A stretch of 50,674 nucleotides of DNA, the filler included, from Catajapyx aquilonaris (lineage: Eukaryota), in the NCBI GenBank assembly GCA_000934665.2. It is 2 parts of 2 records of this genome, joined end to end, with 100 filler letters (N's around TTAATTAATTAA, not from the genome) between each part and the next. Parts side by side here need not be neighbours in the genome. Positions count along the whole stretch, not along the records: positions 1 to 25,287 come from JYFJ02005397.1; 1 more part is not named here. One strand, 5' to 3'. The notes under the pieces were generated by a model that worked only from the letters and a program-made list of their open reading frames with translations, did not search any database and was not told the origin of the DNA. Positions 12,068 to 25,387 of this stretch are shown here, piece by piece. Position 1 is the stretch's first letter. Each line of letters starts with the position of its first letter. The position numbers and the translations under genes were made by a program.

Positions 12068-15000
12068 ATGGGTACGTGGGAGCTGCCGTCCTCATCAGCG
12101 ATGCGCGGCAACCACTACTACAGCGGGAGGTGCCCGCCCTTCCTGGTCGCAGGCTTGGTCCTGGCCTGCGTCTTGCTCCTCTACAACTACTGGTCGCTGT
12201 CCCTGCAGAACTATGAGCTGGTTAAGCAAGTGGAGCTGCTGCAAGAAGAGCTCAAGCTCGTGTAAGGGTGTCACGATGGGTACATCCTGAGGTCACTGTT
12301 TAACCACGGTTGCCTCTTTGACAGGTCGGGGAGGCAGGTGGAGTGCGAGAGGCAGCACGAGGCCCTGCATACCAGGCTGAGGGATGCGGAGGACGAGATG
12401 GGGAAGCTGCAGGTGATGGCCAACAAGAGGGACGAGGAGGTCAAGGAGGCCAGCAGGCAGGTGCAGAAGAAGGAGGGGGACGTCTCCTCCCTCAAGAACG
12501 ACCTAGAGAACGTCAGGCAGGAGGCGCAGAACTGCAGGGAGGAAATCGTAAGGGTTCTTGGTTTGTGCATGGTGGACATTTCGCAGGCTCATCCGGAGTG
12601 GTATTCCACACCTCCATTGCGTGGTTCTAAAGGCCGGTACCCACGTACAAGTTTTCTCGCATACGAGGAGCCAACTGCACATGCCCGGATACGAGGAATG
12701 AGGAAATGTTGAAAATTTTCAACTTTAATCCCCTTTTCGAGGGACAAGAGGGGTCCTGAGGCGACAAAGAGTCCATCTCGACGTACAAGATTTCTCGCGC
12801 AAGAGGACTGGCATGGGAGGAACTTGCACGTTGATACCGGCCTTAAGGCCCTTGCCACACTAGGTGGAATTTCCGTCGCAGTCCGCTCAAAAAAATCAAA
12901 CACATTGTAGTAAACAGGATTCCGTTAAACGGAAAAACCGTCGTGTGTGTCTCATCCCGACGGAATCCCGTTTACTACCCTGTGTTTTATTTTTTTGAGC
13001 GGACCGCGATGAAAATTCAGCCTAGTGTGGCAAGGGCCTAAGAATCTGTCTTAAGATTGGAATTCATTATTTACTAAATTCCTCGAGGTTTAGTGCAACA
13101 GCAGCACATTTTTAATGCATTCATTGCACAAGCCAGAGTGCTAGGAATTTTTAGTTCCACCGTTATCACAATATGTGCATGACGTCACTATGAACATCCT
13201 GGTGGCGACTGAAGATAGCAGAGCCTGGCTCCATTTTTATTTTATTGTTTGATAACTGAATGCCATTTGCCAATGCACTTAAAATGGCCTGCATATTTTT
13301 TCCCTCGTCAAGCCTGTGAATGTGTTTTCAAAGCATAACATATGCAAATCTAAAAATTATAATTGCAGAAAGGTTTTTTTCTTTTAATGTAATGTTGTAT
13401 TGCATTTCTCGGTAGGTCAATAGCCCTTAGAAAATGGTATTTCCCATTTGTCACTTTTGGCTCATTAATTTTCACACAGAAAAACATGGAGACAAGTGTG
13501 GCAACGAAGGACGAACTGATCGCCAAACTTCAGAGCAACACTGAGAAGTTCATGAAGGAGAAGCACAATTCTGTGAAAGAAGCCAAGGAAAAGGAGAAGC
13601 AGCTCTTGGCCGTCATTGAGCAGGTGAGGACTTATCCGAATTGGCCGCATTACGTAAACCGGTGTTTTACTCAGTTGTTGTCTTCCAATATTTGCAGCTG
13701 AAAGAAGATAAGCAGAATCAGGATTTGCAGAGTGGAAACCTTGGTGAGTTGAATGAGTCGCATGTTTTATTTTTTGGAGGAATGGTTCAAATGTAGGGAA
13801 CGGATCAGCATGAGTCTTTTGATTAGAGAAATCTTTGCTTGTATGCTTTTACAGTGATGAATAATTTTTCCAGACTTGTTACGTAGGGTTTCTGCCTGAA
13901 TTTTTCTAACCAGCTGCCATACATTTTTGCAATCCATTTTTTACTGGAGGTTTTAACAGTTGTTAACAGCATTTAATTGCTAACGTGCATTTGGTTTGCA
14001 CTGTTTTTGTCACTGGCCAGGTGCAATTTTTGGCGACAGTACTGCTATCTAAAGCAATTGAAATAGCATGCAATCTCTTGTCATTTTGCACGAAATTATC
14101 CTATTGTGTGGGGTACAATGGGTTGTATCAATCAGTCAGTAAGGCTTGCCAAGATGTAACAGGGCAAGTAAGATAAAATAACTTTTCAAGTAAGGTTTTA
14201 GCTAATAATCAAAGTTAGCCATCTGATTAGCTGATGGGAAGTCTGTTGATTACGTAATTAATCTTGCACTAAATACGTTCGCTTGTAACGCTGTATATAT
14301 GTCTCCTACTTGCTTCAAAGACAAAGTAACGGCCAATTTTCACATTGTCACTGAGGGTGTTTATGCCTTGAACGTAACAAGTATAAACTAGCCATGACGC
14401 AGCACTTGCGACAATAGCTACACTAGGCATAATCACTTGTACAAAATGCCACTCTAGCACTATGCAACTTAATGTTTGTGACATTAATTCTGTGTTTGTC
14501 CTACGCAGTTAAAATAAAAGGGAGAGTCAAGAGGTAAGTTGAATTTTTATTCACTCAGAATCAGTAGGCTAACTGCATGTGTGACGATATGTTGTACACA
14601 TACGATGTCTACCTGTTACGGTGCATATGCATTATTTACACAAGGACATTTGTCTCGCAATGCATGAATTGTCAGCACTCATTTATGGATACGCACCTCA
14701 CTATGCAACACCACTCAAAAGTGTTCTGTACCTTAAGTCTTCAGTGGCGAGCCGTGCTGTTACGAGAGAAATGTCTGCGGATAAATAATGGTTGTGTAAG
14801 TATGTGTATAGCAAATTTTTACACGTGCAGTGAAGGTACTGAGTGAAGAAAAAATTATACTTCGGTACTCTCCCTTTTCACTGTTAGACTGTAGATGTAA
14901 TTGGTCATGCACAGGTTTCCAACAAATACGTGACCTTGTTTTTTTTTACAATACCAGTATTAATGGACAGCAAAGGAGCCAAAAATTGCACACGGAGACC

Positions 15001-16824
15001 GTAATTCAAATGGTGTGAAACTGTACCGCAGCAGTTGCACATTTATTTATTTCTCACTCTGGACCCCTTAATTTTTCTAACTCTGCACTCGCCTGGCAAA
15101 CCCCAAACTTCTAGTCGCTAATGGTCAGGAGATGAACTCTCCCCTGGAGTCCCTGCTGCCTGTCTCCCCCATCCCCGGTAGGAGGGGCAGCTCCACTGGG
15201 AAAGTTCTCAAGCACGTGTACGTTCAGAGCAAAGGCCTGAAGGGCATGAAGTGGCACGAGGACTTGCCCATACTAGTCCTTGACCCCCCTGGCGTGCCCA
15301 GGCCACCTCCAAGGTTCAGTGTGGCAGACCTGGCAGGTGGGTCATCTACCCGTCTTTTTTTGGGCCGTGTTTTGATAGGTAACATTGCAATTGCTTGTGG
15401 CTTACGACCTTGGACGTTACGGACAAGAAGTGATTCGGTGCATAAGTTCTGTTAGGTTCTACAACTGTTACTGTTGCTAAAAAATATATCGCGGCCACTC
15501 GATTGCAATGTTACAGTGGGCTGGCTTGATATGGAAGCCCCGAAGGGCCTTACTGATTGTTTTGCGCATTTTGGCTGAATTTATATGCATAATGCATTGT
15601 AATTACTAATTAGAAATGATTTGGCAACTGCATCACAAAATATTTTTAAATCAACATGAGTTCTTAGGGGCTTCCGTAGACTGCGGACCTTGGAATGCTT
15701 CATTGGGAATTTAACATTGGGGATCCGAAGTAACAGTTAATAAAAATATTCTGCCGTGTATGGCAAAGTGGTGAAATATTCCAAGAAGTTCCCAAACTGC
15801 CATGAAATGTTTGTTTCGTCACTTCATTGCTGTGTCAAACTAAGGTTATTTTGCTGCCTGAAATCTGGACTCTTCTTGATCACTATGCAGCTAATGGTGG
15901 TTTGGAATTTATTATCTGGGTTGTTCGCCTTGTGGTTGAGAACCTGACACTTGTAGCCATACTCTTGCATGGCTGGGTCCTAATGGGCTGCCTGCTGTTA
16001 GACCTTATTCACACTGCACTAAACAGCGCATGAAGGATGCATGAACTGATGTGAATCTGGCCTAAGACGTAGGTTTACGCTGCTCTATCGCATGCTTTGC
16101 TCTTACGACTTTTCAACAGATTGAAGAACTTGTTTGCAAAAACTCACCGAGTCCATCAACTTTTTGAATGCAATATAAAGAGGAGGGATGGACTCGGAGG
16201 AGCATTTTGTCAAAAGAGAGCTCTTCAGGTGAAGGCTGTTGTGTCATGGCCTCATTTTCTTACTTGCGGTATCAGCAGGAAAGCAGGGTGGTGGCCCTGG
16301 CGACAAACCAGTAACAAGCGACCCCAAGGCCAAAGCCCAGCTGGACGCAGCCGAGGACAGGGAGAGGCAGCACAAGCTGGTTCTGGAGAGGCCGGGGAAG
16401 AAGGAGGAAGCAGCTCCAGGGGAGAAGAAGACAGAGAAAGACGCAGTGCTGGAGGTCCCCAAACAACAGAAAAGTGGGTGTTACATTTCGGATCAGCTAA
16501 TTTCCACTGTTGATGTGTTCCGTTTATCTAGCTCCAGATAACAACCTAGACACCATGGAAGATGACATTGATCCATCGAGGTTGGGTGAGGATGCAGACC
16601 AGAACGGGGATGGATCTTTGGACGAAATTCAAGGAGCAGGAGCTGCTGCGGGACAAGGGGCTGCAGGACCTGGGGCCGATCCAGGGGCAGGAGTGGTGCC
16701 TGCACCTGTCGAGGGAGCTGGAGTGGGGCCTGCCCCAGGAGTGCTCTCGGCAGCAGACAAGGACGCACTGGACGTGATGGCTCGGAATTTGGAGAACCAG
16801 CAGGAGCCCAACAATGAACCCTAA
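12068..16824 (+). CDS. GOLM1/2: Golgi membrane protein GOLM1/GOLM2(CASC4)-like type II membrane coiled-coil protein
   Basis: N-terminal GRCPPFLVAGLVLACVLLLYNYW signature followed by coiled coil and an acidic C-terminus. Exons 12068-12261, 12325-12547, 13480-13623, 13698-13743, 15115-15336, 16279-16473 and 16532-16824 join in phase. Confidence 0.8.
12632..12842. mobile_element. PIF/Harbinger-like MITE (older)
   Basis: Imperfect terminal inverted repeats ggccggtacccacgtacaagttttctcgcat / atgggaggaacttgcacgttgataccggcc in a TAA/TTA context. Absent from the duplicated intron at ~24855. Confidence 0.65.
12847..13038. mobile_element. PIF/Harbinger-like MITE
   Basis: Perfect 18-bp terminal inverted repeats ggcccttgccacactagg / cctagtgtggcaagggcc, with extended internal symmetry. 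TAA target-site duplication at 12844-12846 and 13039-13041. Confidence 0.9.
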
Positions 16825-18805
16825 GGCTTGGGGAGATGTAGTGGCACTGACTGGACCGTAGGTGTTGATTGTGACTGAGTGTAACCGCCAGTGACTTGCT
16901 ACTCTGGGGGTTCGATAATGGTGAAACACAAGATTGTTCCTGTCATCAATTTTTAGAAGTGATCAGAGCTTGGCTCGCAAGAGGCGGACGGAACTGATCG
17001 AGCGTTAGAACTATTTGGGCTGGAGGAGATTGACGCTGATGTTTTTTATATCATGCATTTCTTTGGACACTGTTATGAATTATTGACATTCTTTGACTTT
17101 CAGGTGCTATTGTCTTGATCAGCAGCGACAAATAAGTTTTACAGTGAGCCTCTCAATTGTGTATCTATTTGCTCAATGGCTAGATGGCAGTGTAATGGCC
17201 TTTTTACACGATTCCTCTGCTAGCAAATGAGCCTGTGGTGTTTCATGGACAGCATGCTGCATGGACGAGCTTCTGTTTTGCTAGCCGCGACCTCGTGCAA
17301 ACGGGCTTTGACCGCTTTCATGTGCCATTTGGTCGGATGGATATGAGTTAGCATGACCTTGCCATCCGGTGACTGGAAAGCCTGAAACATTTGCTCCCAT
17401 CATGAATCCGTGATGACGATGGGAACATATGTTCAGTAAGCGGAGGATACCAACAAGTTTAGCTGTGCTCTGCGATTGATTTTAGCGGGAGTTATTAGAT
17501 CATGTGATGGAATAGTGTAATATTGGTGCATGCACAGTAAAATTCCCGGTGTTTTAAAATTCTAGTGTGAATAGGGGAAAATTTGTGGGACTTTTTCATT
17601 AGACATGGTCGAGAGTAACTCCCACTAAAAGTAGTGTCGGAGCATGCCTAGCGTGATCCTTGTTCGTATCGTTTTATGAGACAGTACCTTGAAATTCCAC
17701 ATTATTATTATTAGACACATTGCTCATCTCAGGATTTAATCAGTTTAATTACTTGAGTGTTGCACACATTCGTGTCGGAATGTGGTTTTGGTAGGTGTTA
17801 GTTGCAGCACAAATGGCGTTTTGACCATTTTGTTTTGTACATGAATCTTGAATGTCATAAAAACCAGAGCAAAACTTGGCGATGTGGATGCACGGCACGC
17901 AGCTACTTTGCCGTCGCAGCTGCAGATTTAGCTTCGTTTCCGATGAGCGTTCCAGTAATGTCAATGGCAACTCCCGCTGACGGGGTTATTTAGGTAGCGA
18001 AGTTCGTGTCTCGTAGGTAACATGAACCTCCGACGATGTTCTTCCCCTTTGTTCCTATTCGCTGTACTTACGTTACTTTTTTTCGGGTCGCTTTGCAATA
18101 GACTGGGTATCATGAACGAATCTATATGTATATAAATGACGCTGTACCTATCATTGACCATTTTAGTGTTGGCGAAATAGTACAAGTCGGGTGTGGCAGT
18201 CGTCGTCATGCTTTTTAAAAGTAGCACCTTCCACGCATCGAGTGCGTTTTGCCGTGGCAATGTTTTCCAGCGATCGGAAGGTCGTGGTTTGTATGCTGTT
18301 TTTTTTATCAACGTGTGGAACAGTTTGAAGTGAAATAAAAATGTGACCTGTTGAATCCGTCTTTGGATTTACCGCATCCAGCATTTGCACCGTTGTCGTA
18401 CGTCGCCGTACTTATGAGCAGTTGTTGATTGTTTGCAAATATGGTAACAATGAGAGGGTCTAACCTGCTCAGTATAGCAGCAATTCGAAGGTACATTTTT
18501 ATTTAATTTTATTTAATTCAAATGTGTACTACTGATGATACCATCGATGCTGGTGCTATTCCCTATCTTCATCGGCATATTTCCGCCATGTTGGTAATTT
18601 TTTCAGAGTGAGCTACATTTTGGGCTAGTTTTCCCCGAAAATATTCTTTCCAATGGACCTCTTCAGCTGCAGAATTTAAGAGGAGGATCTACTGGCCACC
18701 TGAGGTCCGAAGTGGCAATATTACATCTGAAGTAAGTGGGGCTTGCCAAAGGGTTACAACGCTGTACAACTCCGCTCTTATTGTTCCCAGGCAGACCTTT
18801 ACCAA

Positions 18806-21485
18806 ATGGCAGACTCGATGGTTCCTGTCTGTAGCACCCAGGACTTCAATGCCCAGTGGGCGGAGATCACCCCTGAGTTCTTCGAGTGCGTCAAAGGTAA
18901 GACGACATGTCGTATGTCGCAAAAGGTTTGATCCCTCCGTTTCCTTACAGAAATGGAACTGGGTGAGCTCCTCCACGACAGCATGTTTGGATTGTTCGAG
19001 GCCATGTCGGCCATTGAGATGATGGACCCGAAGATGGATGCTGGGATGGTCTGCAACCGGGGGAAGAAGAGGGCCCTCACCTTCGACCAGGCGGTGAAGG
19101 TGGGTCAAAGGCGCAGGAGGCACCGGGCAGTATGTACCGTTCATATTATTACAGGAGGGCAAGTTAAAACTGGATAAGCTGACTCCGGCTGAGCAGATGG
19201 CAGTGATTGACACCACCTTCGCATGCCTGGTGACCTGGCTGGAAGGTCACTCCCTGGCTCAAACAGTATTCACCAACCTCTACCTCCACCGACCCCATGA
19301 AGTCAAAGACCACCTTGTAAATGCTTTCAGCATATGCATACTCAAGCTGATAGACACCATCAAGGAATATGTCAACAGGTCAGTTTTAATTGTTGTAAAA
19401 TTCCGGAAGTGTACGAGTTGGGGACATCCACAGGGCGTCCGTGTTCGAGGAAGAGGACTTCCAGCCAGTTGTGTATGGATTCAGACTGGCAGTGGAAATC
19501 AGCGACCAAAAGGCAGTTGCCATGTTGCGGGAGGTGGAAGATGAGCTGCAGCGGAAGTGTAGATCCACCAGGGCCAGACCAGGAGAGAAGGAAGGGGAGA
19601 GGGACCCAGCCCTGGAGCAGGCCCATAGGAGCGCTTCAGGCCTCCACGCTCGATTGAGGTTCCTCCGCCTGCTATACCAGGTCAGTCGCATCGTTGGCAC
19701 TGTTGGGCAATCCTTGACGTCATCTGTGTTTGCAGGCCCTGCTGTGCTTTGGCCGGCGCGACCCTTCAAGTCTGACCGAGTGCCAGCGTTTCTTGTCTGG
19801 CTGCAAAGAGGCCCTGGCAATGGTGGCAAAGGAAGGGGTCATGGAGGCCAGCTGTGGAGAGGATGGCTCGGAATCTGTCCTAGGCTTTGAACCAATGGTG
19901 AACCAGAGGCTGCTTCCCCCAACCTTTCCCAGGTACACTCGTCTCAAGTCCAGGAAGGAGGCTTTTCTTTACCTGGAGCAGCTGCTGGTCAGGCTGCAGC
20001 ATGCGTGTCGGGTGGCCAACTGCGCCTCATTTCACTCAGCCATGGTGAGACTGGCATTCACTGGATTTTAATAGCCTGAACTTGACGTATTTCTCACTTC
20101 CTGTGCAGGATTTCTTTCTGGAGTTTTCCCAGCAGTCCCCATGCGTCTTGTCCCGCTCAGTCCTGCAGCTGCTGTACCTTCCGCCATGCAACCGTGTCCT
20201 GGGCGCCAATCCCCTGACGGAAGTCCTGAAGGACTCGGCACGGTCCTTCATATGCCCCCCTGTACTGGCCTCCAAGTCGCCACTCATGTCCAACCCGCAG
20301 GCTCGGGAATACTTGGAGACGTTCATGAGCCACTGTGCCAGGCCGTTCGTGGCACTGCTGCAGATCTGCGGACACAACAGGGCTAGGCAGAGGGACAAGT
20401 TGGCTCACATTCTGGAGGAGTTTGCTAATCTTCAAGATGAGGTTAGCTCCATTAGGTTCTGGGAAGGCAGCGTCCACATGGCATCTGACACTTATACACC
20501 ACTTCTACTCTACAGGCTGAGCGGGTGGATGCCTACCTGCACAACCTAGGCATGAAGTCAGACTCCCCAAGGTCCCACTTGGCCTGCTTTGGCACCTGGA
20601 TCCTCTACCACACCCTTAGAGTGATGGTTCGTTACCTGCTGAGTGGGTTCGAACTGGAACTGTATTCCCCGCACGAATTTAGATATGTTTATTGGTACCT
20701 GTACGAGTTCCTGTATGGTTGGCTGGCATCTTCCTGCAGTAGGGCAGATGGCATTCTGGCAGAGCAGGAGGCACTGGCTGACATGGGAAGTGGAGGGGGT
20801 GGTGGGAGTGGAGGGGGCCGAAGCGGAGGAGGAAGAGGAGCCAAAGGTCGAGCCAAGGCCAGGAAGAAGAAGGGGGCCAGACCCATATCCAGGGACGTGG
20901 CGCTCTCACAGGCACTGCAAGCCTTCTCAGGTTGGTAATTGGACCCATGTATTGCATTAATACGTCTACACAGAACATCCCTTCTTAGGTGCTTACTACA
21001 AGGCGATGACAGCCTTGCATGTGGATGGGCGGATTCTTCGTCCAAACCCCGAGTTTGATAATGAGCAGGTGCGCTACGAGCACCGTTTCTCGCCATTCAG
21101 CTCCGTGCGGACTCCCCCACTGGTTCATTATTCACAGTACTTAGAAATGACCGCACTAGTCCAGGAGGGTGGCATCATGCCCACTGCTGCCTCTCTTTAT
21201 GTATCAGCATGCAGGCTGTTCCACCAAACGAGAACCCTGCTCGAAATGGTGCAGCCTCCAGACGATGAGGTCAGTCTCACAGTTGCCTCATTAACCTGCA
21301 ATTTCTTCCTGCATAAGTCGGATAATAACACGCTTTATCTGCAGGTTCACGCCCTTCTTAAGATCACCAAGACCAATTTTGTAGTGATGAAGCTTCTTGC
21401 TGGGGGACACAAGAAGGACCAGATCCTGCCACCAGAATTTGATTTCTCTCTACATTTGCACTTTCCCATTATTAAGCTTGTGTGA
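18806..21485 (+). CDS. NAA35: N-alpha-acetyltransferase 35, NatC auxiliary subunit (Mak10)
   Basis: Exons 18806-18896, 18951-19099, 19155-19378, 19434-19680, 19736-20044, 20109-20441, 20516-20930, 20989-21269, 21345-21485. Motifs [93 protein letters not shown]. Confidence 0.97.
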
Positions 21486-21803
21486 ATTTTTTGTACGTAA
21501 AAAAACAAGTGGTGAGCCGCAAGTGTTGTTATTCAGTTGGTTTTTCAACGAAATCTGTGTGTATGTCGAAAGTGCGCTGGATTAAAAATCTCCTGAGATA
21601 GTGTCAGTCATCATTTTCTATGTTCATGTTATGATCCGTTTAATTATAAATTGACACTACACGTCCGCACATGCTGGTCCGCATGTGTGGACGACAGTCG
21701 AGCAATCATAAATGGCACATGTAAGTTGCTAGATGACGAATGTTTGTGGAAAGGTGACCATGGTTGCAACAATTCTAATTTGTATACTGTATTCCCCATT
21801 ATC

Positions 21804-22736
21804 ATGTCCGGACAGCCAGGCAATGTTGGCTCAACATATCAGTTTGGATGCAAAGCCATCGCTACCGGTTCGACAGGCCAGTCTGTGAACCATCACGCAA
21901 TGCAGGTCAGGGGCGCATCTAGCCAAATTATATTTTGTAATTTGTATGTTGTTCATAATCGTGAGCTGTACTATTGAATTTACCATCAGGTCTATGGTGG
22001 CTATCAATTTGGTGCAACCCCCACATTTTTCAATGCTCTAAATACAACCCAATCAAAAATGCAAGTGGGTTTTCCCACTACCACAAACCAGTTTGGAGTC
22101 TCAGCTCGTAAGTCCGCAGCAGGCTTCCTTACGACGTTCAACTCTCCAAGTCGACGTGTTACTCTTACGGCAAAGGGTAGTAGCCTGATACAGAGTATAA
22201 TGGCCGAGTACAAATGCATCGCTGCCATGAAGAGGTACGAGACCATGAGCATGGAAGAACTGCGTGTGAAATATTACGCTGCCTTTCGCAAGGTGCTGCC
22301 AGCAGTTTGGTCCCATCCCAGTCACAACCAGACAGGCACTCCAGCACCCCCCAGCATGCCAGTCGTGCAAGTGACGCAGGAGGACAAGTCGCCTTTGGGC
22401 ACCGCCATCTCCCTCTTCGGCCCCTACGTTGCAGGGATAGCCCTTGGCACCAGAGTCCAGTTCAGACCAACCAATAATATAGACGTGGTGGAGAAGAACG
22501 GACAGACCAGCTACATACAGACTCTCCTACAGTGCATCACTACCATGCGAGAGTACGACGGAAAGAGCCTGGAGGAGCTGCGCATGGAGGACTACCATGC
22601 CAACTGCAATGGGAAGCACGACAACTCTAGAGAAGCACCATCCTTCCCGGCAAGTACTGGTGCGTTCCCAGCGACGCATGGCAGTGCAGACACTGCAGCA
22701 GCATCACGATGGCTCCAGTTGTGGGGCATGCCATAG
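21804..22736 (+). CDS. Truncated Nup98-derived protein with two GLEBS (Rae1/Gle2-binding) motifs, ~282 aa
   Basis: Exons 21804-21905 and 21990-22736 (phase 0). A few FG motifs, plus motifs YKCIAAMKRYETMSMEELRVKYY and VQFRPTNNIDVVEKNG...LQCITTMREYDGKSLEELRMEDYHAN. AATAAA at 22808. Confidence 0.75.
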
Positions 22737-23432
22737 GGCATATTCAAACATGACTTTTTAATTTTTGTATTGTTAATTCTTTTGCTTGGACCACCAGTGA
22801 ATACAAAAATAAAGGAGGCCAACTCTACAACAATGCTTGGGTGGAATTTTTGTTGTATGGTACTGCTGCTAGTACGACGAGAATTCCACCCCTTGTTTTT
22901 TCAACTGCTGGCATCAATACGCTGCATATGTGTCGCTATACAGGACGTGTCTTATCGGCATATGTCTTCGACGACCTGGAAAAGACGAGATTTTCAGCAA
23001 TATTTTTATTCACATTTTACTCCCTCCAGGAGGGCCACCCGTCCTTTCTGAAGATCAGCGTTGCCATTGCATGCTTATCGATAAAGCATGCAATGGCAAC
23101 GCTGATCTTCATCGCGGGGAATTCCCTATGCCCGTTTCGGTGGATCTTATCTTATCTACTCCTGCTCCGTCCGCTGTTGTCTGCCGGAATCCCTCCGGGC
23201 ACCCTGGCCTGGCAGCACACGCGGGACAGGAACACGCCGCAGGTACTACACTTGCCATAGAGCTTGCACTTGCCTTACATCTAGATGATCTATGAACCAG
23301 ATCTATCGGGGTCATGTGGCGCCTTATTTCAACTCATTGTGCAAACCATCCCCAAAAGTTACGTGCAACAACTTATGTAGAGGCTTGGAAGAGGTTGTAC
23401 TGTTACGTAATACCATATTTTCTTTCCTCAGC

Positions 23433-24769
23433 ATGTTTGGACAAAACATTACCTTTGGCACGCCAGGAACATCATTCAGCTTTGGACAGACCGCGTCTGC
23501 CAACAAGGCTCCTACATCCATCTTTGGCTCACAGTCTTTTAGCAACCAAACACCGTCCTTGTTTAGCATTGCAGGCACAGCCCCGACGGTGCCACTGTTT
23601 GGATCCACAGCCACTGGATTTGGCCAGGCAAATGTCCCTCGATTTAGGTTTGGGCCTACTGTCACCACTTTCACGGCATCGCCCAACATGTCCCCACAGG
23701 TCAGAGTACTTCCCATTTCTCAAGATTGTCAGGCCTTGCATGTTAATCATTTTGTGGATGTCATTCACCAGGTGTCTGGAGGCAACCTGTTTGGAGCATC
23801 GACCTCCGCAATTGGGCGGCAGACCAAGACTGTGTTTAGACGAGCTGCCCCAGGCACCAGAGGTTTTGGGACTGGCGTAGGGAACACAAGTGGCTTCTTT
23901 GGTGCCCAAAATGCAACCCAGTCGGTGGTAGGCCAACAGCAAGTGCAATCCACAGCGTCCCTCTTTGGGCAGCCATCTGTGGTGACTTCCCCTGGGACGA
24001 CCATCCTCAATGCTTTTGCAGTCAAATTCAATCCACCCACTGGAACAGATACCATGGTGGAAAATGGGCGGTTGCACAATATCAGCACCCGGCATCAGTG
24101 CATCACATGCATGAAGGAGTATTACACCAAGAGCCTGGAGGAGCTGCGGATGGAGGATTACCGTGCCTACTGCAAGGGTCAGCAGGTCCCAGGGCAGGCG
24201 GCCACCATATTCACTCCTGGTGCTGCCCAGGCTGGAGGGGGTTTGTTCGGCATTGGGGCTGTCCCTGGCCCCACCCCAGCCACTGTCAGTACTTCAGGCT
24301 TGTTTGGGGCACCACAGAACAAGTCCATGTTTGGCACTGACCAGACTGGGTTCAGAACAGGCTTTTTCAACAAGGCGCAGAACACTGGCACTGCGCCTGA
24401 GGGATTCTTTGGCTACTGGTCACTCTCCCTGCAGAACTACGAGCTGGTCAAGCAGGTGGAGCTGCTTCAAGAAGAGCTCAAGCTGGTGTAAGGACACAGA
24501 GAGGGCAAAAGGTTACTCAGGTCACTGAACCAAGGTTGCCTTTTGACAGGTCAGGGAGGCAGGTGGAGTGCAAGAGGCAGAACGAGGGCCTGCATACCAG
24601 GCTGAGGGATGTGGAGGACAAGATGGGGAAGCTGCAGGTGATGGCCAACAAGAGGGACGAGGAGGTGAAGGAGGCCAGCAGTCAGGTACAGAAGGAGGGG
24701 GACGTCTCCTCCCTCAAGAACGGCCTAGAGAACACCAGGCAGGAGGCACAGAACTGCAGGGAGGAAATC
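23433..24769 (+). CDS. Chimeric gene: Nup98 N-terminal FG repeats plus GLEBS fused in frame to a GOLM-like coiled coil
   Basis: MFGQ start at 23433. Exons 23433-23699, 23772-24487 (TAA at 24489-24491 if unspliced) and 24550-24769. Canonical GLEBS VKFNPPTGTDTMV...ISTRHQCITCMKEYYTKSLEELRMEDY. From 24414 the sequence matches GOLM 12188 onward (YWSLSLQNYELVKQVELLQEELKLV). Confidence 0.8.
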
Positions 24770-25087
24770 GTAAGGCTTCCTGGTTTGTGCATGGTGGAAA
24801 TTCCTGAGGTTCGTGATCAGCTGGTGTGGTATTCCAGACCTCCGTTGTGTGCTTCTGAGAAATGCACGCTTCTGTTCAAGTCCTAAGATTGGAATTCATT
24901 CATTACTAAATCGCTCAAGATTTAGTGCAACTACAGGGCATTTTTTAATCACTCATTGTATCGTACGAGCCGGAGTGCTATTAATTTTTAGTTCCATATC
25001 ACCATTATTACAATTTGATATGTCGCGCGTGAAGTCACTAGGAGCGTCCTGTTTTGTTGACAACTGAAAATAACACCCTGGCTCCAT
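24413..25087 (+). repeat. Segmental duplication of GOLM-like gene 12187-13234 (exon 1 3' part, intron 1, exon 2, part of intron 2)
   Basis: Colinear match of exons and introns, ending at cctggctccat in both copies. This copy lacks the two MITEs present in the parent. Confidence 0.92.
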
Positions 25088-25287: not shown

Positions 25288-25387
25288 NNNNNNNNNNNNN
25301 NNNNNNNNNNNNNNNNNNNNNNNNNNNNNNNTTAATTAATTAANNNNNNNNNNNNNNNNNNNNNNNNNNNNNNNNNNNNNNNNNNNN
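25288..25387. other. Assembly gap containing an artificial TTAATTAATTAA six-frame stop linker
   Basis: 100-nt block of Ns with a central ttaattaattaa. Confidence 0.95.

Follow-up and report, generated by a model that had tools for sequence, protein, structure and literature searches.

The locus analysed here raises the question of whether a small gene of Catajapyx aquilonaris, which carries two Nup98-type GLEBS motifs and hardly any FG repeats, encodes a working partner of Rae1 or is the debris of a duplicated nucleoporin gene. The gene (gene A) lies on the plus strand within a window of 50,674 nucleotides, the whole stretch of DNA that was analysed, in which positions up to 25287 correspond to contig G000:C3155. 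Two runs of 44 N flanking TTAATTAATTAA at 25288-25387 form a contig-joining spacer, and the DNA past this spacer is not contiguous with the locus. The open reading frame starts with an ATG at 21804, ends with a stop at 22736, and encodes 282 aa in two exons, with splicing inferred from the sequence. Exon 1 (21804..21905, 34 codons) and exon 2 (21990..22736, 248 codons plus TAG) are separated by a predicted phase 0 GT-AG intron of 84 nt (21906..21989); among the alternative splice pairs tried, one other gave an open frame (donor 21885, 275 aa). The 3' flank (22736..23019, plus strand) contains an AATAAA at 22808. A spliced open reading frame of about 282 aa with its own AATAAA, as reported in the preliminary description, is thus borne out, the splice itself being a prediction. 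The protein starts with M-S-G-Q, compared to M-F-G-Q in the parent Nup98, and exon 1 has no significant overall similarity to the parent protein (109 of 500 shuffles scored equally high).

Both motifs can be assigned to the Nup98 type. The core C-I-x-x-M-x-x-Y-x-x-x-S-x-E-E-L-R is matched twice in gene A (22215-22265 and 22533-22583), and the Pfam profile PF21240 recognises two stretches of exon 2 (E 1.1e-25). GLEBS2 (22452..22610, plus strand) is near-canonical and full length (53 aa), scores 67 bits at 22482-22595, is identical to the parent at 31 of 53 aa without gaps (80% nucleotide identity over 89 nt), and hits, at E about 1e-12, chains 3mmy_B and 4owr_B of the human Nup98 GLEBS. All seven significant matches of the PDB search are Nup98 chains, the eighth being an unrelated weak match (E 0.28). 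GLEBS1 (about 22128..22292, plus strand) is a diverged copy whose alignment at 22191-22274 (35.4 bits) spans profile positions 11-38. It retains the EE pair; KEY is changed to KRY and EDY to KYY, so that acidic residues are now R, K, and Y, and the further invariant residues of the core (H, T, E, K, E, D, N) are not all conserved. Its N-terminal half contains a 2-aa insertion and is scarcely recognisable. A low-complexity linker of 53 aa separates the two motifs. The presence of two diverged copies with a shared core, proposed from the sequence at first sight, is confirmed by the pattern matches and by the suggested search with a Nup98 GLEBS profile, in which both motifs exceed the cut-off of 27 bits used for the genome profile search. 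GLEBS1 reaches further 5' than first given, to about 22128, and takes in the 2-aa insertion.

Judged by its predicted protein, gene A is not a canonical Nup98 nucleoporin. Its 282 aa contain 4 FG dipeptides, as opposed to 23 within the first 324 aa of the parent, and the FG density of its flanks is 2.3 per 100 aa compared to 8.4 in the parent, in agreement with the eroded FG sequence noted initially. Ten studied Nup98 FG domains have 6.3-10.3 FG per 100 aa (PMC4283134), and gene A lacks an FG domain of the canonical Nup98 type (~500 aa with ~8 FG per 100 aa). The reading frame ends 41 aa past GLEBS2, and a Pfam scan of exon 2 (E up to 0.1) returned PF21240 alone, with no match to the autoproteolytic (Nucleoporin2) anchor domain.

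The parent is the intact Nup98-96 gene on contig G000:C671, whose translated exons contain one GLEBS, the autoproteolytic region, and Nup96. Descent of gene A from a Nup98 gene is indicated by the identity of GLEBS2 and by a common intron context. The junction CAG|GTCAG...CAG|GT is found in the same phase in gene A and in parent intron 1 (72 nt), and the residues across it read Q|VYGGYQFGA in gene A and Q|VSGGNLFGA in the parent, with the common pattern Q|V-x-G-G-x-x-F-G-A. The gene A intron and parent intron 1 are probably homologous, and since phase and junction context are common to both genes, gene A is, on this evidence, an old copy of the Nup98 5' end that arose at the DNA level rather than by retroposition. 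Divergence from the parent is similar in the two motifs, with dS 1.08 and dN 0.33 for GLEBS2 (53 codons) and dS 1.11 and dN 0.31 for the GLEBS1 core (28 codons). Three other origins were rejected: an assembly artefact, as the two motifs are merely 62% alike over 89 nt; a retrogene or processed pseudogene, as an intron is present at an apparently homologous position; and an uncollapsed haplotype, as both tandem units described below begin on one contig. The genome profile search scored nine candidates and matched five GLEBS motifs, two in gene A and one each in the neighbouring gene B, on C671, and on G000:C7459; no further full copy of gene A was found among the five matches of a DNA search of its own genome.

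Gene A is part of a tandem unit of ~12.2 kb (12187..24412), together with a coiled-coil gene, an NAA35-like gene, and a Nup98 5' end. Direct repeats occur 12.2 kb apart at 91%, the segment 12187-13160 recurs at 24413-24996 (mostly 81-91%), and blocks of 13234-23346 recur collinearly on C671 upstream of the intact Nup98-96 gene. The simplest reading of this arrangement is a 12.2-kb tandem duplication with a breakpoint inside Nup98, by which unit 1 would end in the truncated gene B, and we infer a contig join by which unit 2 starts at 24413 and continues onto G000:C671 into the intact Nup98-96 gene. A decayed copy of the gene A 3' flank without the coding region is found at G000:C671:73316-73551 and reads AATAAT in place of AATAAA, while ~800 other bases stand where the gene A coding region would be. 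As unit 2 retains the 3' flank and not the coding region, gene A is, by this comparison, older than the tandem duplication. Its sister copy from that duplication is, on the same comparison, lost. A PIF1-helicase-like fragment, which we take to be a probable Helitron piece, occupies G000:C671:73537-74022, where the unit-2 coding region would be. MITE-like inverted repeats are present within introns of the coiled-coil gene at 12846-13039 and 14561-14842, the first of which is absent from unit 2. The interval separating genes A and B contains, at 23049-23111, an inverted repeat with perfect 28-bp arms and a 7-nt loop, which is not part of the blocks in common with C671.

Further Nup98-derived copies accompany gene A in this genome. 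Gene B (23433..24412, plus strand) is a separate neighbour gene, derived from the Nup98 5' end as a truncated copy of younger age; it has FG repeats and one GLEBS (24099-24149), which lies 1.5 kb downstream of the gene A motifs and was not mentioned in the preliminary description. Compared to the parent, gene B has dS 0.161 and dN 0.077 over 295 codons (pairwise dN/dS 0.48); its reading frame is open and its indels are, on balance, in frame. At the tandem junction (23433-24770 and G000:C671:74635-76757), an in-frame fusion joins gene B to the duplicated GOLM-like coiled-coil gene, whose copy on C671 appears decayed in its later exons. A third mini Nup98-like gene is encoded on the minus strand of G000:C7459 (L009 2617-3261), where the ATG leads directly into one diverged GLEBS, followed by what is probably an intron and by a short exon with few FG. 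Its motif retains 19 of 26 invariant sites, is saturated at synonymous sites relative to the parent, and has CITTMREY in common with GLEBS2 of gene A; a weak test for longer-length homologues of this motif returned none among three candidates. Moreover, 168 nt of a 361-bp contig (L011 97-264, G000:C18237) correspond to 21991-22158 with one mismatch, beginning one base into exon 2. This piece sits in unrelated DNA directly after CAGCGGTTCTCAAA, presumably a hAT-type transposon end, and represents either a transposon capture or a chimeric contig.

The main rival to a functional gene A is a relaxed or recently dead duplicate, that is, a once spare Nup98 fragment now drifting without a present role, which would make it ordinary debris of a repeat-rich gene. 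Such 5' fragments arise repeatedly in this genome (gene B and the C7459 copy), and the unit-2 sister of gene A has been lost; against drift, the open frame, the GT-AG intron, and the AATAAA persist at dS about 1.1. The pattern of residue conservation argues in the same direction. With 26 invariant positions of the 53-aa motif defined from 39 long single-GLEBS representatives, and 4000 neutral simulations matched for overall identity, GLEBS2 keeps 21/26 invariant versus 10/27 other sites (reached in 3/4000 simulations), GLEBS1 15/26 versus 6/27 (30/4000), and the C7459 motif 19/26 versus 6/27 (4/4000), all with small codon counts and a motif-based detection that is biased toward copies retaining the motif. 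The GLEBS of gene B (1012/4000) is too young to discriminate. The lower synonymous divergence of the GLEBS2 core (pS 0.40 vs. 0.57 for the whole motif) leaves room for gene conversion, which may add to its signal.

Outside the motifs, four segments of the gene A flanks gave no alignment to the parent beyond that of shuffles (49, 51, 88, and 109 of 500 equally high), while neutral substitution at the GLEBS2 distance predicts 59% flank identity, a value that takes account neither of indels nor of the rapid change of FG sequence in the parent itself. Relative to the parent, the invariant-site excess and the non-aligning flanks support the claim of the preliminary description that the GLEBS motifs were selectively retained over their surroundings. 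The FG loss itself is inside the neutral range and gives no signal of adaptation, as a relaxed duplicate would have it, and the high amino acid divergence of gene A is also in line with that explanation. The parent equals the cross-animal consensus at 44 of 53 motif sites, and thus most amino acid changes fall on the gene A branch, where dN/dS is perhaps about 0.5-0.6, suggestive of relaxed constraint.

Frame survival is harder to reconcile with neutrality, even since the young tandem duplication. Of 5000 neutral runs at each distance, 594 preserved an intact reading frame at d=0.08 and 0 did so at d=0.5. Across five duplicated blocks of mostly non-coding DNA (two coding-rich blocks excluded), 27 non-triplet indels occur in 1857 aligned bases; at this rate, about 3-6 neutral frameshifts would be expected by our arithmetic in 846 bases since the tandem duplication, and gene A has none. 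Also compatible with a relaxed duplicate, no orthologue of gene A was found among the 150 best representatives listed, whose BLAST matches all centre on GLEBS, and a weak test for near-length homologues of exon 2 returned 0 of 401 candidates. The ESM Atlas gave no usable match. Overall, gene A has probably been under selection until recently at least, and we consider it likely to be functional still, which leaves a drifting remnant as an unlikely explanation.

If gene A is functional, its GLEBS2 very probably binds Rae1. One Rae1 locus (C396) and a Bub3-like locus (G000:C2228) were detected, which are lower bounds; an intron interrupts the Rae1 motif, and the nearest named relative of the Rae1 exon is that of the mayfly Cloeon dipterum (90%). 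In human Nup98, E201/E202 form salt bridges with R216/R172 of Rae1 (PMC3783196). The Rae1 of this genome retains both arginines (position by offset), and both gene A motifs retain the EE pair. For GLEBS1, we hold binding to Rae1 to be possible and somewhat doubtful. Complex prediction of this motif (exon-2 residues 44-105) with the Rae1 of a close relative (P0158) returned values of 0.00, 0.42, and 0.00 in a comparison whose controls were not folded, and carries no weight for or against binding.

With a near-canonical GLEBS2, no anchor domain, and few FG repeats, gene A would be expected to yield an off-pore Rae1 binder if expressed. NUP98(181-224) alone co-precipitates RAE1 and, when overexpressed, displaces RAE1 from the nuclear envelope and stops the export of poly(A)+ RNA (PMC2133102). 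Such a free GLEBS peptide titrates RAE1 away from the pore, which makes a role as competitor credible in mechanistic terms (PMC2133102). On balance, we favour the interpretation of gene A as a lineage-restricted Nup98 mini-paralogue that would act as a free GLEBS, competing for Rae1 or serving as its off-pore adaptor. The Nup98 5' part (exon 1, intron 1, and part of exon 2) would have been copied as DNA beside its parent, the GLEBS segment would have been doubled, and the FG spacers, released from constraint in a protein without the autoproteolytic anchor domain, would have decayed while selection preserved the frame and the Rae1-contact core. The product would most likely be a soluble protein of low-level or tissue-restricted expression that binds Rae1 via GLEBS2, perhaps weakly also via GLEBS1, and would then compete with pore-anchored Nup98 for Rae1 or create an off-pore Rae1 pool, thereby tuning mRNA export or the mitotic and meiotic roles of Rae1. 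In cell culture, free GLEBS acts as a dominant inhibitor of mRNA export and of Rae1 docking, and a naturally retained GLEBS-only protein would, if true, represent a built-in means of tuning Rae1, a protein also targeted by several viruses.

A more specialised version of this role, in which gene A is a dedicated bivalent decoy or cross-linker that holds two Rae1 molecules and was selected in germline or antiviral conflict, appears rather improbable. The EE pair and the excess of invariant residues in both motifs, spaced by the 53-aa low-complexity linker, speak for it, but 11 of the 26 invariant residues are gone from GLEBS1, charge reversals included, and bivalency is doubtful since three of the losses are acidic core residues. 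Doubling is also a frequent by-product of repeat-rich Nup98 duplications, and the single Rae1 locus offers no co-duplicated partner. Precedent for a germline conflict comes from Sd-RanGAP, a partial duplicate of a nuclear-transport gene that drives segregation distortion in Drosophila (PMC11285756). For an antiviral one, ORF6 peptides occupy the basic groove of Rae1 without touching GLEBS (PMC9376891), and a GLEBS protein alone would therefore not mimic the viral target. Of the bivalent adaptor or competitor originally envisaged, the competitor part is hence credible (PMC2133102) and the bivalent part is weakened by GLEBS1, while the link to viral antagonists is unsupported.

Binding of Bub3, or of Bub3 and Rae1 on separate motifs, with a role in the spindle checkpoint is very improbable. 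The genome does encode a Bub3-like gene on G000:C2228, and GLEBS1 is diverged. Bub3 binds the GLEBS-type motifs of Bub1 and BubR1, whereas the Nup98 GLEBS is Rae1-specific, and both gene A motifs are of the Nup98 type by PF21240 and by their significant PDB matches. Exon 2 gave no Pfam match to the Bub1/Mad3 domains that surround Bub3-type GLEBS. Equally remote is the reading of gene A as a facultative 5' module that is spliced to the adjacent Nup98 copy and gives a Nup98 isoform with additional GLEBS motifs. Before the tandem duplication, gene A stood immediately 5' of Nup98 in the same orientation, and a splice-acceptor-like CAG precedes the Nup98 ATG; against this, gene A ends in an in-frame stop and an AATAAA of its own, and its copy in unit 2, before the intact Nup98-96 gene, is without a coding region.

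The two-motif design is not unique to gene A, and Nup98 derivatives with several GLEBS are common among database proteins. A profile built from the five local motifs matched 1166 representatives, and among the best 150 examined, 36 proteins have two or more GLEBS, with species-specific copies in several animal phyla; this is not a frequency, as ranking by summed score favours multi-motif proteins. In nineteen of these 36 the FG density does not exceed 1.5 per 100 aa, and 18 are no longer than 400 aa, while a Pfam match to the Nup98 autopeptidase was found in one. The 30 of 36 that were looked up include proteins from a wasp, a moth, a tick, a mite, two shrimps, a tardigrade, and a nematode, with further hosts being two sea slugs, an acorn worm, a catfish, a lungfish, and a plant. 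Conversely, 39 of the 40 representatives of at least 1100 aa among the matches listed have a single GLEBS. RING-type Pfam matches (E up to 0.001) occur in 8 of the 36 multi-GLEBS proteins from the best 150 of 1166 (P0011, P0013, P0020, P0027, P0037, P0058, P0083, and P0112), with the RING at the N-terminus in Palaemon XP_068246992.1 and Macrobrachium XP_064088522.1, and at the C-terminus in Dinothrombium RWS07280.1. These GLEBS-plus-RING proteins are possible Rae1-directed ubiquitin ligases.

A GLEBS tree, calculated with a quick method from 62 columns and with 41 of 72 inner branches open, groups motifs by species in Aplysia (98), Choristoneura (99), Paramacrobiotus (97), and Clarias (87). 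GLEBS1 is unplaced, and the joining of GLEBS2 with the C7459 motif (85) involves long branches and is not trusted. As the motifs group by species where the tree resolves, this suggests a repeated independent origin of multi-GLEBS proteins, although some entries may be gene-model or assembly errors. A literature search of titles and abstract beginnings, which included few subscription papers, found no description of two-GLEBS, FG-poor, or RING-fused Nup98 derivatives, and a term search of PMC8645118 gave no mention of Nup98 or Rae1. The wider point is the recurrence, in unrelated animals, of automatically named proteins that carry several GLEBS, are poor in FG, or combine GLEBS with RING. It is a speculative and rather unlikely extension that animals have repeatedly made the Nup98 5' end into small, pore-free, often multivalent GLEBS proteins. 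These would constitute a class, so far undescribed, of endogenous sponges or retargeting adaptors for Rae1, RING-fused in some cases and acting in germline or host-virus conflict, with gene A as a bivalent and the C7459 gene as a monovalent member.

Compared to known systems, gene A has the Nup98-type GLEBS, the EE pair, and the intron-1 context in common with canonical animal Nup98-Nup96 (C671; human GLEBS PDB 3MMY chain B) but differs in its length of 282 aa, its two GLEBS, its 4 FG, and the absence of the autoproteolytic domain and of Nup96. Yeast Nup116, Nup100, and Nup145 are likewise Nup98 paralogues that divide GLEBS and FG functions (PMC4283134), yet they are located at the pore with FG domains of 200-740 residues, and GLEBS is restricted to Nup116. 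Sd-RanGAP of Drosophila melanogaster is, like gene A, a partial duplicate of a nuclear-transport gene, and its product mislocalises (PMC11285756); it is a different protein and an analogy only. Closer in design are the repeated-GLEBS proteins Clarias XP_053334695.1 (245 aa, 2 GLEBS), Aplysia XP_035825401.1, Ixodes EEC05320.1, Microplitis XP_057337105.1 (8 GLEBS), Paramacrobiotus XP_055355736.1, Protopterus XP_043934252.1, and Choristoneura XP_073966190.1. Like gene A, these seven automatically annotated proteins have no Pfam match to the Nup98 autopeptidase and a sub-canonical FG density, whereas their similarity to gene A is centred on GLEBS, so that they are not orthologues, and most retain more FG. 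The competitor model itself has its counterpart in the engineered fragments NUP98(150-224) and NUP98(181-224) (PMC2133102), which likewise present a free GLEBS without a pore anchor; there, one wild-type human motif was artificially overexpressed, whereas in gene A the motif is natural, doubled, and diverged.
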